64,000 bases of DNA from Catajapyx aquilonaris (lineage: Eukaryota): positions 124,001-188,000 of the forward strand of contig KZ538868.1 in assembly GCA_000934665.2 (NCBI GenBank), read 5' to 3'. Both the position numbers and the translations under genes were made by a program. This document shows, one piece after another, positions 30,101 through 62,176 of this stretch. The first letter of the stretch is position 1; the number at the start of each line of letters is the position of its first letter. The notes under the pieces were generated by a model, which had not been told where the DNA came from, searched no databases, and was given only the letters and a program-made list of their open reading frames with translations.

Positions 30101-33100
30101 GAGCGGAATCATATCTAAAGCCAAAGAGGGTCTTGCAAAATCCAAGTCACGGCCTGACCTTAAGGCTCCAACTTCCCCTCCAGCTTTAGATATAGGCAAA
30201 CCTGAGCCACCCAAAAAGTCAGAAAATGAGTTACAGTGGGAGAGCCTTGTGACCAACTTGACACGGCCACTGTTCTTGTGTGACCTGGACTTTAGTGACC
30301 TTAAATCAGAGGACGATGTGAGCGTGCTGGTTTCAGAAGCTGTTTCCAACGGTCTTCCCCCTCCCCCTCCCCCGCCCCCAGGGGTTGCACCTCCTCCTCC
30401 TCCACCTGCTAAGGTCCCTCCTGCACTTCCCTCTACACCTACAACACCTTCAAACTCGTCATTTGGTGTTAGTTTGAGGCACCACCAATTGTGTGGGTCG
30501 GGGCTGCGAAATGCCAACTCCCAGCCTCAGCCTCCAGCTCAGCCTCAGCCACCACCTCCACCAAAGAAGACCAAGAAGACTGTGAAGCTCTTTTGGAAGG
30601 AGGTACGTGATGACCCCTGTGCTGCAGTCAAGTTGCAGAAATCGGGACTCATCTGGGATGACATCACTCCTGTCCAACTTGACGTGCAGAGGCTGGAGCA
30701 CCTTTTTGAGAACCGGGCGAAGGATCTCCTCAGCAAGGTGGGATGTCGATGTGCATGTAATGCTAAGCTTCGATTTTGTGTCAAATGGTCATGATTTAAA
30801 TTTCAGAACATTCAAGGTGGGTGGTTGCTACTAAAAGAAACTAATTATGATGTAGATATTATTAACTATGCCTTTACATGTTTTGTAAATTGAACAGTAC
30901 TTCAAAGGTTTACATTTACAGGCCTCTTATTGTAATATCAATTTTTAAAGAAGAGGTAACTCCATACTATGCCATCTTATTTATGGCCAGGATACTGTAC
31001 AATAATGAGGTTGAGCTGTGCCTCTGTGAAACAAATGAGAGGGCTGTATTTGTCATAACTTCTTGTTCTAATCTCTTGTACTCTTTATTTTATTTTTTCA
31101 TGTGCAGTGCAGATTTTTTTCGGTTTCAACATTGTTTTATTTTATTTGCTAATCTCACACAATGGCTTCTGTGCAGCTAGATTAATCTGCTGGTAACTTT
31201 GGGTACTTGAGCAAGTAGTAGAAGCAGCCACCCACAACTTGGTTGGTTGGGCAGCTGACTTTTGTATGGATTGGCTGCTTGGCTGTTTCTCCTAATCGTC
31301 CCAATTCTTTCTCTTCCGCATCGATGTGGCTTCATAACATGTAGGAGGTGAGTAGCTACAGCTAGCTGGCAAATGGATGTATGGTGGTGGTTGTAGATTT
31401 TGGAAAGGGGCTTGGTTGAGATTCAAGAGGCAAAGAATGCATTTCAAAATAATTGTGTAAGCTGGGCTCTTCATTTCTAATTGCAATCATGATGGTAAAG
31501 CATTACATTCTAAGTGGCAAAAGGGAATACCACAACAAACTACACCTTTCACCTTCCATTAAACATCAAAACATGTTTAACTTGCAATGACAACTCATCA
31601 CAGACACTCTTTGCCATTTGTGAGCTTACCCAACTAACAGATGCTGACACGAGAACGGGTGCCCTTTGGGTTGCTCATTTTTCACACTTAACTCTAAGCT
31701 AGCGCTAAGTTAACGCTAAGGATGTTTAGACTGGGAGAGCTATTTGTAACCTCAAATCGTTTCTTCTTTATGGAAATTTTCTTTGTGTTTAGTCTGTAAA
31801 CACTGCCACTTCTCCATGCAGAAGCAGCAGGAGATGAACAAGGCCAAGGAAATTACGGTTCTGGATCCAAAGCGTTCCAACGCCATCAACATTGGTATGA
31901 CCAAGCTGCCGCCATCGAGGACCATCAAGGGCGCCATCATGAAGATGGACATCTCCATTATCAACAGAGAAGGGATTGAGGTGAGTACCTGGTTGATACC
32001 TATTTTTCACTACCATGAACCAAATTGAAGCAGGTCTTTGATTGCTGATATTTGTGCTGTGTGAATGTGTCATGTTGGCAGTGGAAATGTATGTAAAAAG
32101 CTGTTAGTAGTGCAAGGTACATCTTAAGAAGGGTATATATTTATTAGGATTCGACAATTATAACAAATCCGTTAGCAGAGGGTTAGCTCCATAGCTGGCC
32201 ATTCTAGTTAATCTACTGCATTAGACTTTGGCACTTCATTACAACCAACAAATAATGCTGAAACTGAGTCAATCGGGTGCTGACTCGATTTCTTCAATCA
32301 TAGTCCTGCATGCTTATAGAAGCCAGTCTTCCTTGATCAAATCAGCTGATTTTTCACCAATCATTACAGAGGCTGCATTGGTATTCCCACTGACTAATGT
32401 TGGCATAATAGAAGCATCTGCCACCCGGAGACTTGTGATACCCCTTACTCGGAGTCGCGAATCAAGTACCCCATATTCATCAGATTTAGGCCCCATCTTG
32501 CATGTTCCAGAATAGTGATAGAAAGTCAGTGTCATGTGTCGCAGGTGACATTCCCAGAACTCGTCAGAATCAAATTCATAGTTCTCGCAACCAGGGTAAG
32601 GCTTCTTCCAAATAGTGGTGTTAATACTATACAGCGGTTTCGTTTTGGAGAGTTCTAGAGCAATTTTTACTCCTTCAATGAGGACCTTCAAGTCTCTCTC
32701 GTCATCAAAGTAATTTGCAAAGATGATGGGATTGTCCTCAGGGTCAGTGCTTTTGAGTTGCAGGTGCCCTCTGCTCTGTGGACGCAACAAGGTAGGAAAT
32801 GCTATCCATGAAGGCTGGCCCATTGCCTCGGAGTAAACTGTGCGGAATGCTTCTTTTTCAATAGAGAATGGCGGATTGTCCATCAGTCCCGCGTTTGTCA
32901 GTGGTGATCTGCTCTCAGTAGTGATCTGAATATCGGGCCAATCTTGAGCCGGGTCACTGAATTTTGTGTTCACAAAGCCCGTCGTTTCAACTGATCCGGG
33001 GATGTTCAATGCACTGGGCATGTGATGTAACCAGTTCTGCGAACAATTAGAGATGAGCATTATAAGGCTGTATGATGGATGGAGTACCCTACCAATATCA

Positions 33101-36100
33101 ATTTAATATTTAACTTCTAGTTCCACAAGGTCTGTGTGAACTTGACTGATATGACACACATGTCTGATAACTTTTCTGGATAAGATATTGTGTCACTTAT
33201 GTGTTTCGATGGAGTTGTATAATCAACCACAGTACCATGACACTCTGTGGATGCAACACGTTTTCAGGACTAAAGTCTTCTCCCGTTTCTGCCAAGAACT
33301 GCAGGATAGTGGCCACATGGTCCTGTAGGTTTCGACCTACTCCTGGAAGGTGTTGCACCACAGGAACGCCCATATTTTCCAAGTGTCGCGTGGGACCTAT
33401 CCCAGACAGCAGGAGTAAATGTGGGGATCCAATGGATCCGGCACTCAAAACAATTTCTTTCTTAGCCTTCGCCATGAGTAATTTACCACCACTTTTGAAA
33501 ACCACTCCGGTGGCTGTTTTTGTTGCTTCTGCAAGAAAAAATAACATAGCCTTAGCGATTATTTCTCTTGAACCCAAATGTAACGTACCGTCGATGATTA
33601 TTTTGTGTACATGAGCGAATGTAGTGATATGAAGATTCCTCCTTCCGCGTACGGGATCCAGAAAGGCTTTGTCCGTACTGCAGCGTTCCCCGTTGACAGT
33701 AGTGCGCTGTGTTAACATAAACCCCGTTTGATTCCTTCCGTTGCAATCCCTTATCTGGTACCCCATCTCTTTGGCACCATCCAAGACCAGATCTGCCATC
33801 GGAGTTTGGAAGGCTTCAGCACCCTCCACGCTCAAGTACCCCCCTTTGCCGCGGTACTCCTCATCACCCGTGTACTCTCCACCTCCATGGAAGTCCTCGG
33901 ATTTCTTGAAGTAAGGCAGCACATCGTCGTAGCCCCAGCCTGGATTACCAAGGGACTCCCAGTGGTCGTAGTCTCGACGGTTTCCGCGCACGTACATCAT
34001 GAAGTTGACCACGCTGGATCCTCCGAGGACATTGCCTCGCCTCCACAGGGACGCCTTCTTGGTCAGAGAAAGGCACGTGCGGTCATCTGGTTCTGTGTAA
34101 ATGGCACGGTCCACATCTGTATTTTGGAGGAAGGGAGACAAAAATGGGACTCGAGCCATTCGGGGGGCCTCTCCACCAGCTTCCAACAGAAGGACTTGCC
34201 ATTCTGGAACCTCCGAGAGGCGGTTGGCCAGCACAGCACCTGATGAACCGGCACCCACCACGACAAAGTCATATTCACCGTACAATGTCGGATGTTCCGA
34301 TCTCGCCACAAGTGGTAACCGGAACGCTACTAGAACCGCGAAGAGTGTGGTTAACACCATCACCTTTGGAGAGAGACACTAAGTATTTAGATTAGGATGT
34401 GGAGATATGAGTAGTACGCGCTTTTGACCCTAAAGCACTGGTGGACTCTGAGAGAGACATTCGGGAAGTGATGGAGCAGTTTGTATCGCATTCTCCTTGG
34501 AGGCGCCAGTATCGTTATATATCTGACATGAACTCCTTTTGTGTCAACTTGTGATTTGAGATAAGGAAAAGGCAGTCCCTTACACGGCATTAGGTAAAGC
34601 AGGCCAAGTTGTGCATTTGAGCCCTATACTGTTCAGCCATGTCTCGTGCATATGTAGGATTAGGTTTGCATATTTTGTTCAAAGAATCTACAGTATTTGC
34701 ATTTGCATGCTTCTCTTGCATGCATTTCTTTTTATACTGTGCATCTCTGGCGGTGCAGATGTGTGAATTCATGTAAAGGAATAGTGCAACACGTAGTACC
34801 AGTCCTTTAAAAGAAAGCGTATGTAGGTCAACCCGAAGTCAGCGTATTCCTTGGGCCAAAACAAGTCGAAAATGTAGGGGTGAGGTAGATGACCAGAAAC
34901 ATTTGCCAGCGGATGCCGAAGGAGCAGGATATGGGCGTGAAAATCGTGACTGTTGGGATCTTTCACAGAAGTGATTATCACCACTGATATCCTGCACCTT
35001 CTGCAACCACCGGCCAATGTTTCTGGTCATCTACCTCGTTAACGGTTGGTCCCTCGACATTTCTCCCCCATACATCATTTTCGACTTGTTTCCACCCAAG
35101 GAATACATTGACTTCGGGTTGACCTACTAGTAAGAAACACCTTGTGTAACAGGGTGCCTGGATCGGAACTGCTTCGAGCTTTTAATTAACAGTGCCAAAT
35201 ACTTGGAACACCTTGTATATTAACACTTGATCGAGTTTGAGCATATTTTTTAAAAAAATACGAAGCAGTGCTATCAATTTATGAAGTGTTGTGTAATGGG
35301 AGTAATTGTGTTTTTAATGCCAGATGTGCATTACAAAGCTTCAGAACAAGTCGCACCACTTGTCTTACATGTGTTTAAAGGTTATTGCCGAGGCTGATTT
35401 AATGTGCCTAGCGACATTGCTCGCCTGCCACTGCCCTACATAAACCTTCAGTAATTTTCATTGATGTTTTATAGCATTGGTGTATGACAACTTATTATTC
35501 AGCCATATTGGGCACTAAAACTGACATTAATTAGCTTGATAATTACGCATTGAACCAATCAAAATGCCTGTCCTACACACAGATTACCTGTACTGCTCTT
35601 ACTGGGTGCCCCGTGAGACTTGTCCAGATTTAGGACATTTTCCTGGAATTATTTATGACGATGTGTACTGTACATATGGTTGGGGGGCTCATTTTTATCT
35701 GAATAAACCTTTTCTCTTGCAAGCATCAAAAATGAGCAGTTCAGTAAGTCTGACAGTAGCGACCATATAGGCTACTTATACATGCAGAATTCAAAATAAC
35801 CAATAATGACTTTCAGTAGCTTTATTAAATTCCGCATCTGTCCGCGGACAATTCACATTGAATAAAACAATTCCGTGAGTTGAATCGATACATCAGTTAG
35901 GCCAGCAGCGTTCAACCCCAGCTGAATCGCAAAAATGACCTGAAAAAGTGCGTTTCGCAAGAGGGTGGTGAGGGTCCAACTAGCTTCAACACATGGCTCA
36001 TTAGGGGAGTCGCATTGTCCCATTTCTTCTTTCCAATCTTCCTTGATCATATCCGACGCCTTTTCTGCAATCATGGTGGTCGGAGCGTTGGTGTTTCCGC

Positions 36101-39100
36101 TGGGCAGAGTGGGCATGACGGAAGCGTCCACTACCCTCAAGCCTTGAACCCCGTACAGGCTTAGTCTGGGGCTAACCACTGCTTCAGGATCTGAATCAGG
36201 TCCCATCTTGCACGTTCCCACTTGATGGTACAGTGTCAATGTGAAATGTCGTATGAAACAATCCCAGTATTGGTCCGAATTGAACGGGTATTTCTGGCAA
36301 GGTTCGGGCGCTGTCTCGACAACTCTTGCGTTGATTTTCTGAAGAGCCGGCATTTTGGTCAGGTTCACAAAGATCCTGCAGCCTTCCATCAGGACTTTCA
36401 TGTCCTCCGGATCGTAGAAGTAGTTGGGTGTCAGCTCTGGATGCTCCCAAATGTTGCCGCTTTTGATTCGAAGGCAGCCTCTACTTTTAGGATGCAGGAG
36501 GACAGGGGCTCCGATCATTCCTCGCTGCAGCGTGTAGTTCGCGTACAGTTTGCGGTATGTCGCGGTGTCGATAGAGAAAGGCGTATGCGTCAGGGATGTG
36601 GCGTCCATGAAGGTAGTCGTGCTTAGGGGAATTATTTGGATGTTAGGCGGGTCTTTGGAGATGTCGCTGGATGGGGTGTGGACGAAGCCGATCACTTCAC
36701 AAGCACCGGGGCAGTCCAATGGGGAAGGCTTCTTAAGGGTCCAGTTCTGTCCAAGTATAACCAAGCACAAAATGAATTCATAAGATGAGCAGGATCAATG
36801 AAATAACATTTGAATGCCTATAGAATGCAGAATACTGCGAGTAGAAGGCTAGAATCCATACCAAAACGCTGGTGGGTGAAAGAGCCGCAAGAGGATCTAG
36901 GTCGCCGTTGTGGTCAGCTAGGATGAAGAACGGAGCAGCCACATGGTCTTGTAAATTTTTTCCCACTGCAGCATTGGGGTGGACCAGAGTAACCCCGGCT
37001 TGTTCCAAGTCTTCCTTTGGCCCCACACCGGACACCATCAGCAGATGCGGAGATCCAATTGACCCAGCACACAGAATAACTTCCTTTCTGGCCTTTACCA
37101 CGTACCGCTTTCCGTCCTTTTTGAATACTACACCAGATGCTCGTTTATTCTCACCTGTATAGCATAAGCACATGACATTAGAGCGGTTACGTTACCAACG
37201 TTGTGACTAACAGGATCGAGTGATAATACTGCGGTAGACTATATAATATGCAGTTGTTAAAATATTGTAAAAGAATTATGTGAATTTCATAAACGAAACT
37301 GAAGTATGTTTAACTTTTATTGTACAAGGACGCAAACTTACCGATATTTTCGAAAAGTATTTTCTCTGCTCGAGCATAGCAAATAATATGCAGATTTTGC
37401 CTGTGTTTGACTGGTTCCAAGAAAGACTCGTAGGGACCGCATCTTCTGCCATCCCGTACAGTACTCTGCAGAAGCATGAATCCTGTCTGGTTGGCTCCGT
37501 TGCAGTCTCTTACGGGGTATCCCAGCTGCTGTCCAGCCTCCAACAGTCTCGGCGCCAGATCGCTCTCAAACCTGCACCTTCCCTGCACGGTCATGTATCC
37601 ACCTGTACCGTGATACTCTTTTTCTATGTAGTCGACCCCGTTGGGACGCATGTCCTCCGATTTGATGAAGTATTGTAGCACGTCGTCGTAGGCCCACCCT
37701 GTATTGCCAAGCGACGCCCATGAGTCGTAGTCGCGACGGTTGCCACGCACGTACTGCATGTAGTTGTGCTGACCAGAACCTCCTAGACACAGGCCTCGAG
37801 GCCAGTAACATGTCCCTTTGTACATGGATTTACAGTAGGTTCCGTCAGTCTCCGTATAATATGACCAGTCCATGGCCGTGTATTGAAGATAGATGGCCAA
37901 GTAGGGTATGTCGGCGACTATAGATGCGTGGCAACCTGCTTCCATCACCACTACGTCCCAGCCGGTAATTTCGGACAGGCGGTTAGCCACTACGGACCCT
38001 GCAGACCCTGCCCCTACGATCACAAAGTCTGTCTCACATTCGGACTCTGTCCCGCAATCTAAGCCTGCCTTGACCGGCAAAGACACGGCCGCCAAAGCTG
38101 CGGCGAGGAGAAGTGGCTTCATGGTGTGTCTTTTTATGTTATCCGACTTATTTTGTTATTTGGTGTTGTTATTCTATAAATATGGAGAGAGATATATATA
38201 GTAACTTAGTAAATCAATCGGAACTTAGTACAATAGTTGGTTGGCTCACCAGTAGTAGAATGGCATTCCGTTCGTGTCAAGATATCGAGATTGAATGGGA
38301 TACGGGAACTCGTCAGTGTTCTCGCAGCTGCCCTATCGTAGTTGAAATTCTGGGATTGTACAATGCAGTATCTGGCATTGGTATTGATTTTACAGATCTG
38401 AAATTAAATATATTCTGCAGCTGGTGATGGCCATATTTGAATAACAATAATGATCATGTTTTCTATTGTCTGCTGCAAGACTGAAACTTCTGTTCTCGCG
38501 GTGCTGATGGCCTGATTCTGCAGGGGGTCACGTCAATGTAAAGCATTACACCGTGGAAATATGCGCTGCATCTGTAATGAACCTGTAGCATTTGCAAAAA
38601 AAAAATGCAATACTCTTAAAGGCTTGCATGAATAATGCCTTTACCGACACTGGGCGAGAATTACATTATGTATTTGTGTTTTAACGTGGCACATTATGCA
38701 GTATTATTACAGCACATTATCCCATTAATGTGAAATTTTAATGGCAGTAGACTAATATGTAAAAGCCAACCCAAACTTCAGTGTTATTGCATGTGCTTAT
38801 TTTTATTGATTTTTTTTACAAGTGGCGTGCGAATTATCTAAAAGTAAAATGACAATTCAGAAGGGAAGTGATGGAGTCGGAGAGAAGACTTTACGAAGAA
38901 GAGGTGTTTGTTGGAAATATGTTTACGTTCGGGACGGAATGATTCAGTTTGTGTACCACTGCCTTAAGAAGTTCCTGGTGGCTTACTTTCTTGGTGCCAC
39001 GGGTTTATGAGGCCAGGAATCTTTGATGAGGTCGGATGCCTTCTCCCCGATCATGATAGCCCCAGCATTGGTGTTTGCGCTGACCAAGGTTGGCATGATG

Positions 39101-42100
39101 GCACAGTCGGCCACTCTCAGACCCCTGATTCCTCGGACTCTGAGAAGGGGGTCCAGGACAGCGCCCGGGTCACTGTCATGACCCATCTTGCATGTCCCCA
39201 CTGGGTGGTACACGGTCAGGGTTTTGTGTCGCAGCATGCATTCCCAGAAGTCGTCAGTGTGAGGCACGTGATTCTCGCAGCCTGGGAAAGGCTTCATCCA
39301 TATCTGCGAGTTGATTCCTTGAAGCGCTCTCGTTCGCGTCATTTGCTCCGCAATTTTGCAGCCCTCTATCAGAACTTTTATGTCCTTCTCGTGCGTGAAA
39401 TAGTTTGGGTATATCACTGGATGGACGTCTGGGTCTGAGCTCTTTAGTATGAGCTGCCCCCTGCTTTCTGGTCGTAGGAGGAGCGGAGCTAAGAGCCAGG
39501 CCTCCTTACCCATAATTTCGCCATAAACTGCACTGAATGCTTCTTTGCTCACTGCGAACGGTGGTCTGGCTGGAGCCGTAGGGTCACCCAATGGCGATGT
39601 ACTCAGAGTGATAAACTGAATGTCAGGCCAGTCTTCGGAAGGATTGCTGTACTTGGTGTGAACGAAACCCATCACCTCACCTCCACCGGGCGTGCTCAAG
39701 GGGCTGGGCATTTGAGCCAACCATGCCTGTGAATGATTTGAATGCATACGATAATATTTGGTCGGAACTCGGAAGTATACAATGTGCATTAATTACGTAC
39801 GAGGACGCTGAAAGGGTGAAGAGCGCTCAATGGTTCCAACGCGCCTCCTGTGTTGGCCAACACGTAAAGAAACGTGGCGACATGGTCTTGCAGGTTCTGC
39901 CCCACTCCTGGCAAGTCATGTATTACTTGAACACCTGCGTCTTGCAAATTCTTCTTGGGACCTATTCCCGACAGCATAAGGAGATGCGGAGATCCGATGG
40001 CACCAGCACAGAGGATGACTTCTTTACGGACAAGGGCGAGAAATATCTTCCCATCTTGCCTGAAAAACACTCCATGTGCTTGTTTCGTCCTTTCTGAAAT
40101 GAAAAGTGGAAAATTGCATCTACTCACTGCAATGGTGATATGAGGAATGTAAATCGCAATTGACGCGTGCTCATATGCAGCATGTGATGCTATTTTTCCA
40201 GACAACTCTTTAGGGTAGGCAATTTTTTTTGTATTGGTACCTGAAGACTGGCTTTAACTTACCGTCAATATGAATCTTAACCACTTGTGCAAAAGTAGCG
40301 ATGTGTAGATTTCGTCTTCCTTTGATGGGGTCCAGAAAGGCCCTGGCGGTGCTAGACCGCGCACCTCCCCTGGTGGTACGCTGCATAAACATGAATCCTG
40401 TCTGGTTCATCCCGTTGCAATCTCTCTTCGGGTATCCCATCTCCTTGCCTGCTTCAATCAGGATGTCCGCCAGTTTGGACTTGAACGGATCCGATCCCTG
40501 CACACCCAGGTAGCCTCCCTTTCCGTGGTACTCCATATTCACTCCGCATGTTTCTCCCTGGTAGTCTTCGGACTTCTTGAAGTATGGCAGCACATCATCG
40601 TAACCCCACCCTGGATTGCCCAAGGACCTCCACAGGTCGTAGTCATGCCTGTTGCCCCTGACATACTGCATGAAGTTAAGCACGCTAGTCCCTCCGAGCA
40701 CTTTGCCCCGGGGCCAGTAGGAGGTCTGGTTGTCCAGGGATAGGCAGGTCCGACCGTCTTTCTCCGGGTAATATCCCCAATCGATGGGTGTCCTCTGCGC
40801 CACCAGGGCCAAGTAGGGCACGTCTGTCATCCTGGGTGCTTCTCCACCCGCCTCGACCAAGAGCACCTTCCACTCGGGCACTTCCGAGAGCCGGTTGGCA
40901 ACCACCGCCCCCGCTGACCCAGCGCCCACCACGATGAAGTCGAACTCTCCGTAAGGACTGTATCCCTCCGCCATGTCACCAGACGCGGTCAAAGCAGTTA
41001 AGAATACCATCATCATCGCCATGCCGCTTTCCATGGCTGTGACTCCTTACCTACACAGAATCAAGGAAGAGCGTGAAAGATACAAGAATTTAGATTCTTA
41101 GGGTTGATTTGATAGCAGATAACCAACCATTTCTCTGTCTACCTCGTGTACGCAGAGAATTATTACACTTACAATATCTCAGTACTGCAGTATAGGAATT
41201 TCACTGGTATCTGACACTATAGCGGTTTCAACGCCCGCCTTTTCATATTTTAGCAGTGTAAGTAGAGGACTACCGGTATATTACTACCTTATTGAGGTTT
41301 TTGTCCTGTATGTAATCTTACATTAGTTACGACAATTCAACGTTACGGCACTCAGTAATCAGTGTCCTACGACTAACTATGCACGGTTGCAGTGCGAATA
41401 AAACGTTTAACTTTTAACACTATGGCCAGTGACAGTCCGAATAAACGACTCCAGACCTACCTGATGCTGTGATACGTGAAGTAGGTCTCTAACCGACTGA
41501 AATAAGGATTTTAAAAGCAACGAATTCACCGTATTTCTCAATTAGATTACAATAATTTGTCGCTCGCAACATTTTGTCCTTGCCATGCACATGCGAGGAA
41601 GAATGAGAGAACAAGGGGTTACGTGTTCACCTATTTGCATGACTTGACCACACGGGGGTCTTGTGACCCAAGCTTTCTGCTTAACGTCACATAAGTGGTG
41701 TCATACATTATGTTGTCCATTATTAAGGACATTCACATGTGGATGTAGACCGACCAGCATAATACAGTATTGCTTTGAATTAGCTTCTTCCTGCCTCCGC
41801 TGATTACTAGGTTTTATGAACATTTACCGCGTTACGAGTGTTTTTTTGCCATATTTTATGCAACCGAGAATTTCTGCATTATAGTTACGCAATAATTGCT
41901 CGTTGTATTTTTATCTGCTGTCGAGTAGGCAGGTCATTTATGATTAGGGTTAATAATGTTTGCATGTTTTTATGAGATTTTTTGTGCAAGTCAATTATTC
42001 CGATGCATATGTTTTGAAGAAATAGTTGTTGTTGTGATATGCAAAGTTAGTCCAAACTCTATAGGTCAGTCTCCCACCAGGGTACTCGTTGGCCGAAAAC

Positions 42101-45100: not shown

Positions 45101-48100
45101 AACTGCTCTAGATCTACCTGCTAGGATGCGTGATGCAGGTCCCCTACCGACTGAAATTGTCGAATTTAAAAGCAATGAGTTAACCATACTGCTTTAGTTA
45201 TATCATAGTAATTTTTCGCTCGCAATATTTGTCCTTGCCATGTGCATGCCAGGAAGAATAAACTAACAAGAGGTTACGTGTGCAATTATTTCGCATGACC
45301 TCAACGCGTGGGTGACTTGTGCTCCAAGCTATATGCTTAACGTCATTTAAATGTGTATCAATGTCACATTTTATGTTGATCACTCTTAAGGAAATTCACA
45401 CGTAGGTTTACACCGACCGGTATAATCGGCAATATTTCCTGTAGGTAGCTCTTTGATGTTTTGTCATCATGTATCTTATGTAACTTAGAATTGCTGCATT
45501 ATAGTTACGTAACCGCTGGGTTTATTTTTAGATGCGGGTGAGTAAGTTGTTTATGAGTGGGCGTTATTCGTTTTCTTTTTTTTTATAATAGAAAAAAAAC
45601 ATATTCAAGGTAATTCCGCTGGAAATGTTATGAAGGAATAATTGCTGCGATTATAGTATATACAGCTGGTGATAGAGATTCTATCCGGTTTTGTTCATAT
45701 ATTGTTTGTTGTTTATAAAGCAGTTGGTACGTACTTTCTGACAATTATCTTTAAGACTTAAAAAATAACCGATGTCTATATTATTGGAATTTACGCATCC
45801 TTTTAAATTACTGTGTAGGGGGGGGGGGCAAAAATTCATCAACTGCCCTTCATTTAACGTTTCATTCAACTAAAGTATATGAAGCTGACTGTCAGTATCA
45901 TTAGGATTTTTTAAGTAACTGGTGTCCAAAAAAAATGCTGCTCATAATTTGACGAGGTGTTAAGGGTATTTATTATTGTCAGTATGGAATCGATTTAATT
46001 CACAATAGCAAAACTTAAAATGTGTCAGAAATAGGCGAAGATGTACTCGCAGAATATGATCCGTTCAACTGCAAATTGTTTGATTCAGAGCTCGTCTTGC
46101 TGCCGTCTTTTCACTTCTGCTCCCCAATCTTCCTTGATGAGGTCAGCTCCCTTCTCTCCGATCATGATGGTTGGAGCATTGGTGTTTCCGCTGACCAAGG
46201 TTGGCATGATGGAAGCGTCTACCACCCGAAGGCCCTTAATTCCTCTTACTCTGAGTCGCGGGTCCAGGACAGCTTGGTCGTCAGTGTCTGGTCCCATCTT
46301 GCAAGTTCCGACGGGGTGATACGTGGTCATTGTTAAATGCCGAATGTGACACTCCCAAAAGTCATCAGAACCGAACTCATGGCCCTCGCAACCTGGGAAT
46401 GGTCGCTTCCAGATTTCAGATTTGATTCCTTGCAAAGGTTCTGTTCTCGCCAGTTCGGCCAGAAACTTGCAGCCCTCTACCATTGTCTTTACATCCTGTT
46501 CGTCAGAGTAATAATTGGGATACATAACTGGGTGTGACTCTGGGTCTAAGCTTTTCAGCTGAAGATATCCCCTACTTTTTGGCCGCATAAGAATAGGAAC
46601 AGCTGACCAGGCTTCCTTTCCCATTATGTCACCGAAATTCGATTGGAAAGCATCCTTCGCTATTGAATACGGTGGTCTCTCCATGGCGCTTGGGTCACCC
46701 AGAACAGATGTGCTCAGGGCAATAAACTGGACGTCTGGCCAGTCTTCAGAAGGGTTGCTGTACTTGGTGTGGAAGAAACCCATGACATCGATGGTGGCTG
46801 GAACGCTTAGGGGACTGGATCTATGACTTAACCACGACTGAAATGAACAGTGACAACGGGAATTGTTAGTGCATTATACGAAATCAAACGAGAGCATAGA
46901 GTATATCTATGTGTTACCAAGAGGTTGTGAGGATGTAGCGCTTTTGGTACGTCCATAATCCCCCCTGTTTCGCCCATGAATAGAAGTGCTGTGGTCACGT
47001 GGTCTTGCAAGTTTTGCCCCACTCCTGGAAGGTCCTGAACCACCAAAACACCGATGTCGTCCAAATGCTTCTTGGGTCCTACGCCTGACAAAAGAAGCAA
47101 CTGCGGCGATCCAATGGAGCCTGCAGAGAGCACGATTTCTTTCCTGGCTCTCGCGACGAAGAGTCTTCCATCTTTCTTGAACACCACGGCCTTCGCTTGC
47201 TTGGTCTCTGCTGTAATGGATTAAACTAATTACGTAAGATGCGAAGAACAAATATGTATGATTGTTACCGTCGATATGGATTCGGTGAACGTGGGAGAAT
47301 GTAGAGATGTGAAGATTCCGTCTTCCTCTGATCGGATCAATGAAAGCTTTGGCTGTACTACATCGTTCTCCGTCCCTTGTGGTCCGTTGTGACAACATGA
47401 ATCCCGTCTGAGTCTTCCCGTTGCAATCGCGAATTTCGTATCCCATCGCCTTGGCTCCCTCCAATAAAATGTCCGCCAATGGTGTCTTAAAAGTTCCTGT
47501 TCCCTGCACAGTCAAATACCCCCCTTTTCCGTGATAATCCATGTCTTCCGGGTGGTCCTTCTCGCCTTGGAAATCTTCAGACTTCTTGAAGTATGGCAGC
47601 ACATCATCGTAACCCCACTTAGGATTGCCCAGGGACTCCCACAGGTCGTAGTCACGTCTGTTGCCCCTCACGTATTGCATGTAGTTAAGCACGCTGCTTC
47701 CTCCGAGCACTTTGCCTCGGGGCCAGAAAGAGACCTCGTTGTCCAGGGACAGGCAGGTGCTGCCATCCTTTTCTGTGTAATAGCTCCAGTCGATGTCGGT
47801 CTTCTGTAGAATTGGAGCCAAGTAAGGCACTTGGGCTATCCTAGGTTCTTCACCTCCTGCTTCCACCAACAGCACTTTCCATTCTGGGACCTCCGAAAGG
47901 CGGTTGGCCAAAACAGCTCCTGCGGATCCCCCACCCACCACCACAAAGTCAAACTCTCCGTACGGTTCTGGATCATGGGCTGCTGCTCCTGACGCCAGGA
48001 GAGCTACCAAGGCGGAAAAGACGACAGCTGCCTTCATGGCGTCTTCAATAGTTCTGTCTTCTCCACAATGGGACTGGGGAATATATTTCAGTCATGGCAG

Positions 48101-51100
48101 AGTTAACCTTCTGATAAGTTCTTATCGTCCGACTGGGGGAGGAGTGAGATTTTCTAAAATGAGTGTATTTGAGAGACAAGATAGCGATAATACTTGAACT
48201 TCAGCTGCGACCTTTGATTAAGATAGTGTCAAGTACGTACTATACATGAAGCAGGGTGCTGGTACAAACTGCATTTGATCACTCGTACTGTACTACTAGG
48301 CTATATTTCAATTGGATTTTTTTTTGCATTACCCCATTGGGAGTTACATCTCCTTTAGGGGGGGTGGAATACCACCAGTACCAGGTGTGACAAGAACTTG
48401 AAGGTTGAAATAGACAGTTTCAAAGTGGTCGAATGCAATCTTTCATTTACATTGCAACGTGGTAGTACACGAAGACAAGAACGAACATTTATTGCAATAG
48501 TGTGAAATCCTTTAACAGTTGTAAAGTTCTGCAACGAAATAATTTTAGTCCTATTGGATTTTTTTTGCGTGAAGAGAAGCGCACTCACCGTGATACAATT
48601 AGTGGTGCAACTCAATTTAATACGATCCACTTGCCAGCTGATGGAGTATAGTATTGCAGGACTAAACGCGAACACGAGGTGCACCGTGTCCGGCAAGGAA
48701 AACGTTGTGTAATACCTGTAAGTAACCAATTAGCGCGTGGGAAAACTACATCCAGTCAGATACGGACATTTTTATACCCCATGTAGCATGTAATGTGTTT
48801 GAAGCAATCATGTAATTATGATAATTAAGCTGATGATATATATGCTGCAGGGAAGTTACTTCCTTGTTGACGATTGTGAAACGTTCTTCTCAGGGTGCGC
48901 GGTCTGTAGTATAGTGACGGAGACTACCGTATGAAGGAGGGAGAAATGCAACCAGGTAACCGACCACATTTCGTTGGTGCACACTGTGCTGAATTTAGCC
49001 TTCATATTAGAAGGATATCGTGCCTCTCAAAGTGCATGCTTTACGCTGAACAATCCGGTTGTGAGGGTTGAATCGATAATACGTACAAATAAAGATGAAC
49101 ATACTCGTCACGTAATGACCATGAACTACCGGTACTTAGAACGTGTTACTCAAGCTCGTGTGCAATTACAAGAAAAACAATATCATTAAACAAAACTAAA
49201 TTGAAACGTGCTGAAATTAAATACAGCTCTCCTGGTGATATTTTGCGCAAAGGTCAACTGGTCAACTAATCTGAGGCCTAATGACCACAAATTGTTTCTA
49301 AAGCCAATTGGGTTACTTTGGTTCTGGATTGAAGTCAGACTACTATGGGACATTTTTTCACTCGCCTAATGTTGTTGTGTGGGTTATCGAATGATTATTA
49401 TGTCAGCTGAGACTGAGGCTATATCTGATAATTATATATTATCCTTTGTTTGCGAAACTCTTGAACACGCCCTTGGGGCAATATAACATTGCACAGATGG
49501 ATCTACTGTATAACATTTTATTCCAGTGCAACTGAATTCAATGCGTATGATTATTGCACTGCTGTAAGGGAAAGAGAATCACAGAATATGCACATAAATT
49601 ATCATGCTAACTAATTGCAAAGTCTGTGTAGTCAATTCTTGTTGCAGTTCTTTGGTAGCCTATTATTATTATGACATTTGTATAGATTGTTTTCGAAATT
49701 AGGGAAGCCCTGGAATGATAGCGAAAATATCTAGCTTACTTTATATTTGCCGACGGCCTTGTGGGCTGCCTCTCTGCACAATATTTTAGGAGTATTAAAT
49801 TGACAGACAACAGAAGAACGGCTTGAATCTCAGCAGGTAGCGTCAAAGGCATGTTTCCCAACTCAGCTCTGCCAAGACGTGACTAGTTTTTCCATCAAAA
49901 CCAATTAGTCATTTATGGAGATATTTTTCTACCGGTCTTAGCCTTAGGCATACAGTAATTTGCCCAAATTTGTGTCAATGATTATTGAGTGTGTGTGACA
50001 GGCATATGCATATGGTGTTGCTAATCTTGTGGCCTCAAATAGCTAATATCTGTTACTATTTCTGCCTTTATAAAGTCTCCATCAAGTTCAGATAACATTA
50101 ATTACCTATGTGTGTTCTTATACCGGGAGTATACGTTGAAGTACCAGGTATATGATAAAAATTAACAATAAGCAACTCAAGGCAACACCTGATCACAACG
50201 GATAACAATTCATTTATTTCATTTGGAAGTCCAGAGAGTGTCAGAGTTCTTTATCTGCTTTCTTAGGAGAAGGCTGTTTCGGTTTGGGTTGTTGTCCCGC
50301 AGCCTTCCAGTCCTCCTTGATCATGTCTGCGGCCTTCTCTGCGATCATGATGGCCGGAGCGTTGGTGTTTCCACTGACCAATTCGGGCATGACGGAGGCG
50401 TCGACCACCCTGAGTCCCTCGACGCCCCTCACTCTTAGGCGGGGGTCCAGCACAGCCTCCTTGTCCGAATCCGGACCCATCTTGCAGGTGCCCACGGGGT
50501 GGTAGAGGGTCATGGTGAACTGCCTGACGTAGCACTCCCAGAAGGCGTCTGTTCCGGGCTTGTGCTTCTCGCATCCGGGGAAAGGCCCCGTCCAGAGGGT
50601 GGCGTTGAGGGAGGACAGGGCTGGGGCCTCTCCCACCTTGGTGGACAACTGGATGCCCCTCACCAAGGTGGCGACGTCATCCGGGTGCTGGAAGTAGTTG
50701 GTCTGGATGTCCGGGTAGGCCTCCGGATCGTTGCTGGACAGGCGGAGGTGACCGCGGCTCTTGGGACGCAGCAGAGTGGGAATGATCACCCAAGATTCGC
50801 GTCCAAAGTGTTGAGAGAATGACGCGTGGTAGACCTGCGGGTCAAGGCCGAATGGTGTCGGCTTTATCTCGCCCAGTGCCAAGAACGACGTGCTCTGGAA
50901 ATGGATCTGGATGTCGGGCCACTCTTTGTCTTTGTTCGCGTCGGTGTTGACGAAGGCGAGGACCTCCACACCTCCCGCTGAAGTTAGCAGGCCCTTTCCG
51001 TTCATCAGCCAGTTCTGTCGTGAGGGGAAAAAATGTGTCAAGTTGCAGATAGTGTGTATAGATGTTAATCGCATGGTGCCCTAGGTCCGTACTGTATATT

Positions 51101-54100
51101 GTAATATGAAGTTCCAAATCAGCAAACATGTTACTTGTGTAGTTCCAATTTAGTAATGACCTCGATGATGCCGTCCATTGTAACTTTAAACAGTCGCACT
51201 ATACCTACCCAAAAGCTGGGAATGGTGAGGGCGTTCTTGGGGCTGGAGTCAATTTCAATGTCTGTTAGATAGATCATGGGTGCGACAAGGTGATCCTGCA
51301 AGTTGGCACCCACCCCTGGAGAGTGGTGCACCAAAGGAACCCCCACATCTTCCAGGTGATCCTTAGGGCCAACTCCTGACAGCAGCAGCAGTTGGGGAGA
51401 TCCCACCGCTCCAGCTGACAGTATCACTTCCTTCCGGGCTCGAACAGTGCGAATGACCCCATCTTGCTTGTAGGAGACTCCGTACGCCTTCTTGTCCTTG
51501 GCTGAAATAAACCAAAGCATATTGTATTATACGTATCATCACCACAGCACCTGTTTGCCAAGTGTATCACAACTGACGGAACTTACGATTAATTAGGACT
51601 TTGTGAACCGTGGCAAAAGTAGCCACGTGCAGGTTGGGCCTCCGACTTCCCCGAATTGGGTTAAGGAAGGCCGTGTCGGTGTCGCATCTGCCTCCGTCCC
51701 TGGTGGTGGTCTGGGCAGGCATGAACCCGACCTGGTGCCGTCCGTTGAGGTCCCTTACAGCGTACCCCATCTCCTTTCCGGCCTGCAGGAACCTCCTGGC
51801 CATCTCCGACTTGTCTACCGTCTCCACGGTCAGAGGACCCACAGTCCCGTGGAAGTACTCGTGGTCGTCCTTCTCCAGCGGAGGGGAGTCGGCGGGGGGT
51901 CGTCGCCACCCCTCCGCCTTCTTGAAGTATCGCAGTGCCTCGGAGTATCCCCATCCGGTGTTGCCCAGGGACTCCCATCGGTCGTAGTCCCTGCGATTCC
52001 CCCTGACATACAGCATGTAGTTGAGCAGACTGGAGCCTCCCAGCCCCTTTCCTCTGGGCCAGAAGGAGCGTCGTCCGGCCATGGCCCCGCAGGTGTCCTC
52101 GGGACAGCGGGCGTAGTAGGCAAAGTCCAGCGGGCTGTGCTGGACCATGAAGGCGGTGTAGGGGATGCGACAGGAGAGCCAGGCGACAGGTCCTGCGCTC
52201 TGTGCGGGCCCGCCTGCGTCCAGCACCAGGACGGACCACTTGGAGTTCTCCGAGAGTCTCCTGGCCATGACGGCCCCTGCACTGCCCGCTCCCACCACCA
52301 CGAAGTCGTACTCGTCCATCACTGGGTCCCCGAATGTTCCCCCTGCCGAGAACCACCACCACCACATCCAGGCCGCCGACATGGCCACCGCCGTCGTCCT
52401 CCACCCCACCATGCTTCAGGCAATGATGGTGCTGCTGTTTGCTCTTTTCTGAATCAGCTGGAGGAAGGTCTGCTCTCACTATACAGTACTGAGCCAGAAA
52501 TGCAGTCTGACCAACCGAAGGGGGAAGAAACAAGAGATTAGTTATGCGATAAAATTCTGTTTCATAACGCTTCTCAAGGGCTCCCATTAATTATATAATT
52601 ATAAGAAATCCTAGGTGTCGCATTGCCACATGCGGTTGCCACCAAGGGGCAGGTGTATTGATGGATACCAATCAAACTTGGTCTGGATGCCGCAATCTCT
52701 GTCGTCAGTGATTTTATTGCAATTTTGTTAAATACGAGCCGTAAATATAGGGAAGCTTGTTGTATAAGATTATATGCAGTTCGATTCCGAGTTCTATGTA
52801 CGACGTATAATAGTAATAGAGGCATTGACGGATGCCCCGATATTTCCAGCAATATCTTTATGAGAACTTAATTATGAAATACGCGGGATATTTTTGAGTC
52901 ATGTAAATGCCTCGCTTATACAAGTATAGAGAGTGCATTACGGATCATTATCGTCCACATGGCCTATAGACTCACAAAGTATTGACACAGCATTTACAAT
53001 GGCATTCTTTTTTAAAAATCTGTTTTAAATTGCAAATGATAGATTGTGCTCTTTTGGGACATATTAGGTACATTAGGTTTGAAAGAGTCCTTAACAATGT
53101 ACGATATAATGAATGTTAGTTATGAATCTTATGATATAACCTACGAGTACAAGTAGATTCAAGGTACCTGTTTCATGTCGAATGTCACCTCTGTAAGGCC
53201 GTGTTGAGCCTAAGTACAGTATACAGCACATGTGCATAGTTGGCATAGGGTAGTATGATGCTTAGATGGTGATTGTTTGTGACTTTGTTTTATTATGCTT
53301 ATGACTCAGAAAGTTTGTTTTGATTATAGTGCTACAATCATGCCTTTGAATGTCGTCTACTTCCCAGTCATTTTTTATCATATAACTTATTTATTATCAT
53401 ATATTTGAGTTCTATTTCTACAACCGGTGAGGTTTACAGATAATGTTACGATCGTCTTTTATTAGTTTTTATGACAATTAATCAGTTTCCTAATCACTAG
53501 GTCATTTTAAGCATGCTTATTACTTTTGTAATAAGACCTGAAAGGCAAAACAACAACTCACAGTGGCATAATATTGATATGATAGGGTGTTTAAGTTTGC
53601 AGAAGACTTTATCCAACATTGGACCTCTCTTTTTCAAACATTATTCTAGATATCTCGATAATTATCTAGAACGTCATTTTCTACCAGAAAAACTGACTTG
53701 ATCGCCAGTATGCTATAGGCAGGCCAACCTTATTAATCTATGAGGTAGGCTACATGTCAAGGGCTACAGTAACATACAGTATTATGCAATGCCTAACACA
53801 AATTAAATCAAAATGTGAATCGAATAATAATTTTGTATCTCAGGTTTTCATTTTCCACATGATACAAATAATTCTGCGTGATGAGCTCTTTTTTTTGTAA
53901 TATGCGACAAAAATGCAACTGAAATCATTCACCTAATATATTGTCCAGTTTTCTGTGTACACACACACGATCAGGTATTTTCTTAATTTTATTATGTACC
54001 GACCTCATTTACTGAACTGAGCTATATTAACTTGAATCAGGTACATTGCGAAATGGGCTGTTTTTGAGGAATGCTAGAATTCATACGTAGAATTAGCCAA

Positions 54101-57100
54101 GCGAAACCAGAGTCTCACAACGTGACCCTCCATATGCCAATTTGGATGCCCTTTTTCACAAGCCTATATCAAATAGATTGCCACATTTCTCAGGTTGCAA
54201 GAGGTTGTTTTGTAAATTGCTCGCTGATAGTTATTTTTAGTAATGTCACTTACACAAGGTCGCTTGTAAGTGTGTGTGCGATGTACAAAACAATAACTGA
54301 TAAAAATCCATATTATCAATGCTTAACAGGTATAGGTGTGGGATAAGTGGATCAATCATACCTTCTAGAACGTGATATGCAAATAAGGACGCTCCACATT
54401 TATGTACGTTATTTGCATACCAATGGACGGCAATTGTTATAACACCTTGTATATAGTAATTAGTGAACAAACTTCATGTATTTATATTAAACCTGTAAGT
54501 ACGAGAGAGAGAGAGTACTTATTGGTTTAATATAAATACATGAAGTTTGTTCACTCATTACATTGTTGTAACACCGCAGCCAATATATTATCTCACTCGG
54601 AACCTGGCGGCAGTTGTTGCAATATTGCCAATATTGCAACAAGCTGCATCACTTTGCTCTAATATGTTGAGGAAACAAACGGTTTGTTTCCTCTACATAT
54701 TAGAGCAAAGTGATGCAGCGTAAATTTTCTGAATGTCATTATTTTGCCAAGCACGAACAAAGGCGGAAAAGAGATTCCAATTATGTTCAAACACCGCTGA
54801 GCATTTTTCCTCGTGCGATTTTTTAAATGAACAGAGCTTTGGGCTCGTCATCTAACTTCCATCCATTTTTGAGGCACGAAGTGTCACGTGTTCTCGATTA
54901 ATGTGTCCAGATCATGTCAGGATTACATGACAGTGCAGTAGTAACAATTCAAAATGCAGGTAAGTAGGTGGGGGCATCCGGCATGGAACCCTTATTTGCT
55001 TTGAAGCTGACTTTTTTCTGCAATGCTCAGGTAACGTTATAGTGTGGGAGGGGGGACATGGAGGAGAGGTACACGTGCCATGGCTTTTGGGTAGACATAA
55101 TGTGCATACAGTCGCATGGGTACACTAGCGGAAATTCTCTCTCAGACGAAACCTGAGATATTCTAATCCTAATGCGTCACGAACAGGAAGAGAAAAAGCC
55201 AGGACCGGGATCGAACCCACGACCTTTTTTTCTCTTCCTTAGCACGAACAAGACCGCAACCTAACGCTCAGTTACACACCTCTGTAAGTTTTTCAGACAA
55301 TAATTTACTCTGCATTTACCGTATTGAATACCACTTTAAGATCGAGCTGTTAAATTCTCAGTATTACTACAGTATTCTAGTGAATCCTGGTGTGTTGAGC
55401 AATGCCATATAAGTCATAGGTTACTCGGCTACTTGCTGGCCATACTCCACAGGGGAATCTTCAACCTGCGTAACGCTTGACCTTCTCTTTTCTCCCATCT
55501 CCCGCATAATAATTTTTTGCCTTCAGTTACACTGACAAGGTACAAGATTAATTTCACGTGATAAGCACACAAAGTAGGCGAATTACTTTCGTTTTTACTC
55601 AAAATGCACCTCCACTCTGGTTCATGTACTGCATGCAACTTCTGGAATTTATGCCAGGATGTCAATGCACAATGATGCACCGGCCGGATACTTTGTGTTA
55701 TGTTGGTCCGATGGTGTTCTATAAAACCTCGATAGCAATGTGCGTCAGTGCTCAAAATGGTCAGAACTAGTCCTTTGAATTATTCAGTCCACCTGACTCT
55801 GCAGGATGTCCTGCCTGCCTTGATAAAAATCGTTGGCCTCTAGTTGCGACAAGGTCATGCTACTGACCGCCGCATTGTATTCAAAATAATAATGCAATGC
55901 AATGGCACCTCTTTTTTCTCAAGTCCTTCTTTTCTGCGAATTTCACGAAGCGTAACACCCTCTCAGACCGGCAAGCCATAAAGCAACTTACTGTTAGTGA
56001 TTCCCCAACTTGTATGAAAATGTTTAGTAACTGACCTTAGGAGATAGTGGGCGATAGAAAAGCACTATCTGTTGCGCATACCCGGCCGAAGAGAGCACGC
56101 GCCCTCAAGTTTGGCCGGTCCAGCAGGTCTTCTTGGTGGTACTGAGAGAGTGATGGAAGATGGGAAGTGGTGGTGAAGCAGGCGAGGTTTGAGAAGTGGG
56201 AGCAAATGGCGCCCAGGGGCGGACTCGGCCTTGTTTTTGTTGTGACCTTGGGAAAAAAGCAGTCATCAATCCGTTATGCAAGGGCCTAGCCATCTACCGT
56301 TTACCACGAACGAGTCTTTATTGGCTAATACCCTGACCTTTCCGATGTAAATAATAACTTTTTCAGTCCCGATCCTTATAATAAGTCACTCACCTCCATC
56401 TGAATCATAGGTTGCGCATGGTTACCATTTATAGGATTGCATCTAATAAGCGATTACACATCCCGATCCGCTCACATGTAAAGCCTTGTTGATGACTTTC
56501 GCTTGTCTGAGGACCTGTCTTATAATGATGGTTTAGGGGCACAATTTGCGCAAGTGTATAACAATGTTGCCGACTTGGGCTGTTGTGGGTTTGGACCTAT
56601 AGCGATTTTCAATACTCGGAAATCCCCACTCAATTAGCGGATAGTGTGATACTTAAGCATATAATAATGAAATGACAATGTAGGTCACTTTGAACCAGAT
56701 TTTCTTATGCCTTTTGAAAATGTCTTTGCAGAAATTGCTGACGATGCTTCCGACAGAGGAGGAGCGATCCAAGATCCAAGAAGCCCAGCTGGCCAATCCG
56801 GACGTGCCTCTGGGAAGTGCTGAGCAGTTCTTAATCACGCTTGCTTCCGTCTCAGAGCTGCCTGCACGACTCAAACTCTGGGCCTTCAAATTGGATTACG
56901 AAAATATGGAAAAGGCGAGTGGATTTTTTAACAATGCAGATGGACATAATTAATGATGATGTGATGACTCAAATATGAAGGATACACTAAGTTATATTGA
57001 TTGTTCGTTATTTTAAAAATCTATTCATTTCTTCTTGCACCATCATACCAATATTCGGATTCTTCACAGGAAGTAGCAGAGCCGCTGATGGACCTAAAAC

Positions 57101-60436: not shown

Positions 60437-60867
60437 AAAGTTCCCCAAGTTAACTGCTGGATTACTATTTTAAAGGCCTCACTGATAACATATCAGACAG
60501 TTAAACAGGTGAGTTGATATCATTTCACCTTCAAAAGATGTTGTGTGCTCAGGTAATAATTTGTTAATGTGATGCACTCTGGCTATTGCAGGCTACTTTT
60601 GCCATTTGAAAATACGTTGTAATTATATTCCTACCCATGGAAATAATAAGTGACAGATTTTCTGAGAGGCGACTAATGTGGCTAATTTTTTGAAATAAAT
60701 GCAGCAGGACATAATGTAATTTCATTAAGTCAAATAATTTACAACCATCAGTTACATATTTATGAACTAGCAATTTATTCTTAATGGTCTCTTGAATACA
60801 ATGTTCGAGTTCCAGTCTGTCTGAGTGGTTTTATGGTTGACTGGTTGAGCGGAGGACTCCCACACAT

Positions 60868-62176
60868 TATAGACTTCTTAAATCAAGCCAGAAGAAGCCA
60901 TGTTTCCTGTCACAATAGAAGGTGTATAGGTATTACCACTGACTAACATGGGCATGATGGATGATGCCTCTGCTAATCTCAAGCCTGTCGTCCAATGGGT
61001 CAATCTCTGTCAAATTATATGGACAAGCATTAAAAGGTATATTGATTATTATCAGCCTTATGAATGAAATTCACTTGAATGCCTGGCATGCTGAATGATC
61101 AGTCACAATAGAATGATTAGTAGAGTCCGAATATTTACTGTAGTTCCTTTACAGTTGGGATCGTTTTGTGAAGAGATTTATCCGTTTCATAAGTGCAGGA
61201 TGTGGAAAGTGTATGTTTTATAGTGCCTAAATGGCCTATTTCGTGGATTTGGGAACTATTTTGCCTATTCTGACTTTTTGCGACTTTTCATGCCTATATG
61301 TGGCCTTTTTTGAAATAGTTTTTGAACTTTTTGCAGTAATTTCGAGACTTTTTGGGCCTATTCCAGGCCTATTCCTTCCAAGACATGTTTAATTTTTTGA
61401 GGAGTATTTTTTGTGCTACGGAAAAAACCAAAATCGTTCAGAAGTAATACGAATCACGTTTCCGTGACACGATGCCAAATATTTTTCTAAATTTTCCTCT
61501 GATGGGAAAAATATTTGGCAACATATTGTGCAAGTCTGGTGCAAGTGTAAACTGGCTATAAGCGGTAGAGTCCAGAGCAAGTGGTACTTGCTTGCACTTT
61601 GTGTCTTTTGCCTAAGTTTTGTGATTTTCTGTCAGTTTATCATTGTTATTCGATGTTTGCTCTGGATTTTCGACCGTATATTTATACTTTAGGCCTGTAA
61701 AAGTATTATGGCTTTTTTATTATTTTGTAACATATTATCCTCCATATGCCCAAAAAAGTAAACTTTTTGTGCATATTTGAGTTTTTTCGTGCATATTTCG
61801 GGGGGGGGGGGGGTTTGGTGCCTAAAATTCCGGACACTAATGATTAGTGACGTACGGTTTGAAATTTGAAAATCCCTTGTGTACAATTTTTCACGATTAT
61901 CTCGAGCTGACTATAACTTGCTTGACCATAGGAAAATACACATCCTGGACTATATTACACAATGCCTAACTAAATTTTTAACAATGAGTCTGATAGTTCT
62001 CCCCTTAATTCTGCACATTTTCACTTGCTGAAGGAAGTTAGTCACCGTGTATATACAGGGAGCGACAGTGTAGGTTCAGTCAGTCTCCATGTAAAATGAC
62101 CATGTGTTGAATAGTGATAGTAAAATAGGAAATGTCAGTGGCTATAGATGCGTGGCAACCTGTTCCCAGAACCACT
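60868..62176 (-). pseudogene. Decayed GMC oxidoreductase pseudogene (GMC2-like 5' fragment 62176-62070; C-terminal fragment 60985-60868)
   Basis: 62176-62070 translates VVLGTGCHASIATDISYFTITIQH/frameshift/WSFYMETD*TY versus GMC2 [39 protein letters not shown]. 60985-60868 translates GLRLAEASSIMPMLVSGNTYTPSIVTGNMASSGLI*EVY versus the GMC consensus [20 protein letters not shown]...LIKEDW. Confidence 0.8.

Follow-up and report, generated by a model that had tools for sequence, protein, structure and literature searches.

The FHOD host gene and the interval 31981-56731

The window analysed here is a 64,000-nucleotide (nt) stretch of the Catajapyx aquilonaris genome (contig KZ538868.1, positions 124,001 to 188,000 of the forward strand), with a G+C content of about 45%. 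Its plus strand carries an FHOD-type formin gene that spans at least 21.2 kb to 60.0 kb of the window, and the interval between two of its exons (31981-56731) holds six intact minus-strand GMC oxidoreductase genes of three exons each, encoding proteins of 595-655 amino acids (aa). We refer to these genes as A to F; a seventh gene, G, lies beyond the 3′ end of FHOD. The FHOD features, in window coordinates, are as follows.

21170..21373, plus strand: FHOD N-terminal coding exon (tblastn of P0125, residues 1-68, and P0172, residues 3-67; open reading frame, ORF)
29988..30737, plus strand: FHOD exon encoding the proline-rich FH1 and the first part of FH2; ends ...DLLSK, donor AAG/GTGGGA
31822..31980, plus strand: FHOD FH2 exon, 53 aa, ending ...INREGIE (donor gag/GTGAGT; FH2 profile positions 64-118)
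31981..56731, plus strand: predicted FHOD intron, 24,751 nt, GT..AG, phase 0, containing GMC genes A-F (splice sites, orthologue contiguity, conserved position)
56732..56914, plus strand: FHOD FH2 exon, starts KLLTMLP..., ends ...YENMEK (FH2 profile positions 116-176), followed by a GC..AG intron
57070..58542, plus strand: six more FHOD exons, the remaining FH2 and tail (RNA joints; frame open throughout; introns of 57-181 nt)
59930..60006, plus strand: last coding exon of FHOD, encoding the conserved C-terminus (tblastn matches of P0125, P0152, and P0199; stop codon at 60004-60006)

Five FHOD3/Fhos orthologues, from a cricket relative (P0123), a stick insect (P0125), Tribolium (P0152), the honey bee (P0172), and a springtail (P0199), align with the window by tblastn from the N-terminus to the last 21-23 residues. 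Pfam matches to FH2 fall on three exon pieces, one scoring 31.0 bits (under the 34.8-bit cut-off) and two scoring over it (47.4 and 49.3 bits), and a poly-proline stretch (FH1) is found within ORF 29781-30794. An N-terminal region, FH1, FH2, and a C-terminal tail are all present, as in FHOD-type formins. The best database matches are 88-92% identical and are mostly insect FHOD3; the search found no FHOD protein of the same animal that spans the 31980/56732 junction. Set beside the FHOD family (FHOD1/FHOD3, Drosophila Fhos/knittrig, Tribolium Fhos P0152), the host can be aligned along its length with arthropod FHOD3/Fhos, and FH2 is 83-92% identical across a 60-aa exon.

The FH2-coding region is interrupted between 31980 and 56732. 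The interval is bounded by a donor (gag/GTGAGT at 31980/31981) and an acceptor (ttgcag/AAATTG at 56731/56732); the FH2 profile continues over it, with positions 64-118 matched before and 116-176 after (Pfam), and in all five orthologues aligned by tblastn the junction is contiguous, with no residue lost or gained. An earlier note on this DNA had described an FH2-splitting FHOD intron of 24,751 nt, and the coordinates, splice sites, FH2 continuity, and all five orthologues agree with it. The intron position is also found in other taxa: in an alignment of the 60-aa exon and 19 short database fragments, several genomic ORFs read through the same acceptor (...Q/KLLTMLP). From homology, conserved intron position, and splice signals, we infer that FHOD is spliced across the GMC array. 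The stretch from 31 to 57 kb is gap-free, since the single N of the window lies near 25.6 kb. This N (at about 25590-25610) is located in an FHOD intron, next to a stretch that codes for proline or is C-rich, and well away from the GMC genes.

Most neighbouring FHOD introns are short, as the same note had stated. The seven introns downstream of exon 56732-56914 measure 155, 57, 74, 71, 181, 59, and 70 nt, and the one after these is 1387 nt, or 419 nt when it leads to the alternative terminal exon; upstream of exon 31822-31980 the intron measures 1084 nt.

RNA evidence was taken from the contigs of one public run (run X1, of unrecorded type); of the words sampled from the 3′ region of FHOD, 39% occur in it. 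On 39001-59000 seven contigs were placed, each at least 99% alike to the window and with no difference listed. As they are spliced, the run behaves like RNA, and they confirm eight FHOD introns located downstream of 56732. Among them is the intron at 56915-57069 (plus strand), which begins with GC (GCGAGT) and ends with AG. By arithmetic on the contig coordinates, the exon at 56732 begins at its acceptor in the RNA, with no run-on into the intron. Transcripts of FHOD and of GMC genes are both present in run X1.

At the 3′ end of FHOD (58543-60006, plus strand), the RNA joins 58542 to an exon at 58962 that yields ...RKS-LKR-stop; the orthologue alignment instead takes the exon at 59930, which encodes the conserved C-terminal tail. 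FHOD seems to have two alternative 3′ ends. The first three bases of the exons at 58962 and 59930 are identical, in line with the contig break 3 nt past 58542. Upstream of the FHOD start, at 13724-17581 and 19065-19211 (plus strand), lie long Ser/Thr/Pro-rich ORFs of up to 540 aa with no Pfam family and two weak tblastn matches to an insect FHOD3 of 1623 aa, within its N-terminal extension (P0123, residues 298-328 and 366-413); these may be exons of a long FHOD isoform.

The homologous position was then compared in metagenome contigs, which were scanned with the 60-aa exon alignment and gave 80 FHOD loci (360,533 nt in total, 23 of them at least 5 kb long). Both exons lie on the contig in 55 loci, separated by a gap of 0-1365 nt (median 213 nt); the other 25 carry only 139-1362 nt upstream of the match and are uninformative. 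None of the 80 loci has a GMC match, and none resembles the window in carrying a large intron or a GMC gene at the homologous position. The synteny check raised in the earlier note covers the 55 informative loci, which need not come from close relatives, and is silent on the nearest ones. It says that the large GMC-bearing intron is derived, not universal.

GMC genes within and beyond the interval

The GMC genes in the interval, all on the minus strand, are listed below.

32317..34360, minus strand: GMC gene A, 595 aa; exons 34360-33589, 33528-33236, and 33036-32317, stop TAA (Pfam and gene model)
35856..38122, minus strand: GMC gene B, 655 aa, more divergent than any other copy; exons 38122-37342, 37154-36862, and 36746-35856 (Pfam and gene model)
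38986..41034, minus strand: GMC gene C, 602 aa; exons 41034-40263, 40093-39801, and 39726-38986 (intron 2 by RNA joint 39725>39800)
42359..44695, minus strand: GMC gene D, 601 aa; exons 44695-43927, 43670-43378, and 43099-42359 (431-nt RNA contig on 42234-42664)
45956..48637, minus strand: GMC gene E, 604 aa, C-terminus QDEL; coding exons 48037-47269, 47210-46918, and 46837-46088, and a 5′ non-coding exon from 48589
50244..52412, minus strand: coding region of GMC gene F, 630 aa, C-terminus DKEL; exons 52412-51587, 51501-51209, and 51014-50244
56036..56207, minus strand: 5′ non-coding exon of GMC gene F (RNA joint 52506>56036, with 172 letters on the far side)

Each of the six genes has three coding exons with no internal stop, and all introns are GT..AG. 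Two intron positions are common to all copies, a phase-1 position after ...ID and a phase-0 position before (N/A/T/S)W. In A-F, the pieces from exons 1 and 2 match GMC_oxred_N (E 4e-51 to 9e-14, above the 23-bit cut-off), and the GMC_oxred_C profile is complete (positions 1-139 of 139) in all seven genes, G included (E 1e-37 to 2e-43). The Pfam domains, open frames, and three-exon models uphold the claim of the earlier note that the interval holds six intact, co-oriented GMC genes on the strand opposite to FHOD.

Two of the nested genes are covered by long RNA contigs of run X1, which match the gene models with 0 mismatches. A 2029-nt spliced contig covers gene E (joints 46837>46918, 47210>47269, and 48073>48589), and a 2135-nt spliced contig covers gene F (joints 51014>51209 and 51501>51587). 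Stretches without contig cover, for example most of C and D, are uninformative on expression. E and F have 5′ exons of their own inside the intron, which points to promoters of their own there; the 5′ exon of F is separated from the FHOD exon at 56732 by about 525 nt. All coding exons of A-F fall inside 31981-56731, as do the 5′ exons of E and F, and none of the 10 further ORFs in this interval (78-131 aa) has a Pfam family above cut-off. One 116-aa ORF at 55429-55779 (minus strand), between the coding region and the 5′ exon of F, scores 20.8 bits against Rieske_4 (cut-off 28.4), probably by chance.

The dinucleotide-binding GxGxxG motif reads GAGSSG, GAGSAG, or GGGSAG in the N-termini of A-F, where it follows a hydrophobic N-terminus. 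YH(P/Q/Y)xGTCKMG is kept in all seven GMC proteins and SGNTNA in six of the seven, with SANTNA in C; the YHxxGTCKMG and SGNTNA positions would be those of the catalytic His and the His/Asn pair. The first C-terminal motif of gene E aligns with HPVGTCRMG of the solved alcohol oxidase 8rpg. Of the 41 solved structures matched, none is listed as a GMC enzyme from an arthropod; the nearest are alcohol and choline oxidases. The nested enzymes are, as predicted from their sequences, of the glucose-dehydrogenase-like GMC type. Given the GxGxxG motif, the hydrophobic N-termini, and the kept HPVGTCKMG and SGNTNA motifs, the products are predicted to be flavin adenine dinucleotide (FAD) enzymes that enter the secretory pathway. 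At the C-termini, E ends in QDEL (46088-46099), and F (50244-50255) and G (62765-62776) end in DKEL; QDEL presumably fits the KDEL-type pattern of endoplasmic reticulum retention, and DKEL does not quite. Gene B has a C-terminal extension of about 55 residues with a hydrophobic stretch.

The array does not end with the intron. Two further features lie past the 3′ end of FHOD.

60845..62181, minus strand: putative remnants of one decayed GMC copy, with C-terminal sequence at 60845-60988 and N-terminal sequence at 62053-62181 (weak tblastn matches with the window GMC proteins, E 3.7e-4 to 4e-3)
62765..64000, minus strand: GMC gene G, partial, with exons 2 and 3 (exon 1 beyond the window; Pfam; coding to beyond 63883)

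Gene G lies downstream of the FHOD stop codon and is convergent with FHOD. It is 90% identical to F in protein, and in DNA 91% identical in exon 3 and 89.5% in exon 2 plus intron 1. The two remnants have no Pfam match and, judging from the tblastn alignments, look like one decayed GMC copy. With this copy and G located past the FHOD 3′ end, the last FHOD exons form an island in a GMC array of at least 31 kb. The earlier note, which placed the array in one intron, was right for six genes, but the array continues outside it. The youngest duplication (F/G) straddles the last FHOD exons.

Relationships and age of the array

Protein identity within the array ranges from 46 to 90%. C and D are 88% identical and F and G 90%; A, C, D, and E are 58-65% identical among themselves; B is 46-51% identical to the other copies, and F or G is 46-50% identical to A-E. 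Outside proteins reach at most 54% identity to any copy. The best outside values are 53% or less for A exons 1-2, 54% for F exon 1, and 46-51% for full proteins (218 database matches), and an exhaustive search of 1.84 billion representatives gave at best 53% for B exon 1.

For phylogenetic analysis, the 218 GMC database matches were reduced to 201 within 540-700 aa and then to 57 by removing those at least 75% identical; three long-branch rows (P0063, P0248, and P0268) were left out after the first tree. The seven window proteins form one clade in all three trees, against 54-94 outside sequences. The clade received a Shimodaira-Hasegawa-like approximate likelihood ratio test (SH-aLRT) value of 99 under LG+G4 (64 rows), an ultrafast bootstrap of 100 with SH-aLRT 99 under LG+C20+F+G4 (61 rows), and SH-aLRT 100 when 40 representatives from the exhaustive search were added (101 rows). 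Within the clade, F+G branch first, then B, then A, E, and C+D. The single clade and the two common intron positions point to local duplication within the lineage.

Synonymous divergence (Ks) is 0.27 for C/D and 0.21 for F/G, and the ratio of nonsynonymous to synonymous divergence (Ka/Ks) is 0.26 and 0.24, respectively. Between the A/E, B, and F lines synonymous sites have reached saturation, which indicates that the array is old; the Ks values of 0.2-0.27 in the C/D and F/G pairs indicate that it is still growing, and a Ka/Ks of about 0.25 in these young pairs indicates purifying selection on both members of each. The regions upstream of C and D (41382-41763 and 45039-45426) are 72% identical in DNA, which suggests that the C/D duplication took in the 5′ flank, possibly with a promoter or 5′ exon. 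Taken together, the evidence favours a long-lived, still active, lineage-specific tandem expansion.

Origin and meaning of the nesting

The closest known arrangement is the insect GMC cluster in an intron of flotillin-2. The earlier note had described this cluster as nested antisense in its host, in agreement with Iida et al. 2007 (PMC1891103), who describe subfamilies conserved across insect orders and, in the fly, 27-69% identity within the cluster. By their account, the flotillin-2 cluster resembles the window array in that members of the same family stand in tandem, mostly co-oriented and on the strand opposite to the host, within one very large intron that contains hardly any other gene. 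The two differ in host (flotillin-2 versus FHOD) and, following the same account, in the site of the intron, which in the window splits the coding region of the FH2 catalytic domain and in flotillin-2 comes just after the first 16 codons; in size, with six to seven genes in about 25-31 kb versus about a dozen in 81 kb in the fly; and in membership, with one lineage-specific clade in the window versus several conserved subfamilies in conserved order. Unlike the flotillin-2 cluster, the window array spills past the 3′ end of its host. Conservation across species is documented for the flotillin-2 cluster, whereas the window array is known from one genome. The window array thus shares the antisense orientation to the host but neither the flotillin-2 location nor the multi-subfamily make-up.

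A second comparison is the TipE/Teh cluster, nested within CG18675's final intron and documented across 21 insect species in PMC3240667. Like the window array, it consists, in that account, of several homologous genes in one host intron, gained in one lineage and absent from the outgroup intron; the gene family and the host are different, and 21 species stand against one genome here. Among the literature matches listed, no paper links GMC oxidoreductases with formin, FHOD, Fhos, or knittrig, and none on crustacean GMC gene clusters has this arrangement. The one listed paper with GMC beside an FHOD-family term (PMC9928585) deals with how Drosophila sensory organ precursors divide asymmetrically. 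As a tandem enzyme array nested in an intron, the locus represents an ordinary type of nesting, for which FHOD is a new host gene.

We consider it probable that the locus is one FHOD gene whose old phase-0 intron was enlarged to 24.75 kb by a tandem array of six antisense GMC genes, through lineage-specific duplication, with the nesting as a tolerated by-product. The FH2-coding region of FHOD would have been cut by this intron from early on, at a length of 0-1365 nt where it was measured elsewhere. A GMC gene would have colonised the intron once, or the intron would have adjoined one, and local duplication would then have enlarged the array to six independently transcribed antisense genes and the intron to its present length. 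The arrangement may have persisted because genes are hard to remove from an intron without harm to the host, a difficulty argued in both PMC3240667 and Iida et al. (PMC1891103). Most likely, the nesting was tolerated as a side effect of gene duplication in a permissive intron and is no regulatory device, a neutrality that we infer; this analysis contains no evidence that host and nested genes depend on each other.

The earlier note had offered two origins, an independent nesting and a relocated cluster. The latter would mean that the insect-type flotillin-2 cluster, or part of it, moved into FHOD, so that its members would be orthologues of the ancient insect subfamilies. The enzyme family, the antisense nesting in a large intron, and the several co-oriented copies would suit such a move, and the 46-50% identity between the B, F/G, and A-E lines falls inside the 27-69% given for the fly cluster in PMC1891103. 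A relocated insect cluster would, however, be expected to scatter among multi-species clades, and the seven proteins instead form one strongly supported clade in three trees, share two intron positions in all copies, and have no outside protein closer than 54%. Independent, lineage-specific expansion is therefore the origin favoured, and relocation is very unlikely. A different doubt concerns the host: the interval could reflect an assembly error, or FHOD could really be two genes with no transcript crossing the array. In favour of this, no spanning RNA record is among the contigs listed, and the end of the FHOD contig falls only a few bases from 56732. Yet there is no N between 31 and 57 kb, and the two halves are ordered, lie on one strand, and complement each other to the residue at an intron position common to other taxa. 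The splice signals are canonical, the RNA exon at 56732 starts at its acceptor with no run-on, and an FH2 domain cut at profile position 117 would presumably be non-functional in either half. We regard this explanation, too, as highly improbable.

The nesting could also be functional, in that GMC and FHOD transcription interfere or share enhancers, a coupling that the earlier note had proposed, and selection keeps the array in the intron. The short distance between the first exon of F and the FHOD exon, the convergence of G on the FHOD 3′ end, and the persistence in place of an old array all lend this some appeal, and Iida et al. raise the same idea for flotillin-2 (PMC1891103). We nevertheless judge it unlikely: FHOD and GMC transcripts occur together in run X1, part of the array lies outside FHOD, and for the TipE/Teh cluster PMC3240667 reports that host and nested genes correlate poorly and refers to other work in which nested genes are more readily gained than lost. 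A bolder proposal, which we rate as quite unlikely, is that an arthropod lineage with poor sampling has conserved the FHOD-GMC nesting as a synteny block, which would make it a second, independent, long-held GMC array in an intron of a cell-cortex gene, with FHOD in the place that flotillin-2 has in insects. It is compatible with the findings in that the array is old, by its saturated synonymous sites, and its members are intact and expressed. If true, it would suggest a regulatory reason, as opposed to chance, for the retention of GMC arrays in introns of this kind.

Several points weigh against an enlarged intron of a single FHOD gene filled by local duplication. On the transcript side, the RNA comparison covers 39001-59000, so that A, B, and the 5′ half of FHOD fall outside it. 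The earlier note had looked to RNA for the continuity of FHOD, and this was borne out for the eight downstream introns but not for the array itself, as no contig joining 31980 to 56732 is among the run X1 contigs listed on 39001-59000. No loose contig end at 56732 is among the pieces listed either, and the end of the 1154-nt FHOD contig lies, by arithmetic on its coordinates, about 7 nt beyond 56732. On the comparative side, the 80 metagenome loci are mostly short contigs, unable to show both exons of a 25-kb intron, and no close relative of this animal was found in the collections searched. The single clade was tested only against database proteins, and the outside clades in the trees carry no insect subfamily names. 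Secretion of the products was judged by eye from the hydrophobic N-termini.

If FHOD does carry the array as one enlarged intron, the locus shows the coding region of an essential domain tolerating a 25-kb intron with six active promoters. Apart from this, the locus is an ordinary case of a gene family that grew in tandem and became nested in an intron of an arthropod genome, and it would be more interesting if relatives shared the FHOD-GMC nesting. In PMC1891103, Iida et al. ask whether the location in the flotillin-2 intron is due to accident or to shared regulation. A second, independently formed antisense GMC array in another host is a natural comparison for this question. Should FHOD and flotillin-2 have nothing in common in expression or in chromatin context, the simpler answer would be accident, together with the difficulty that genes have in leaving an intron.

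Upstream of the FHOD gene, at 4929-6437 (plus strand), the neighbour is a SPOP-type MATH-BTB-BACK gene, with MATH_2, BTB, and BACK_BPM_SPOP matches on three exon pieces.

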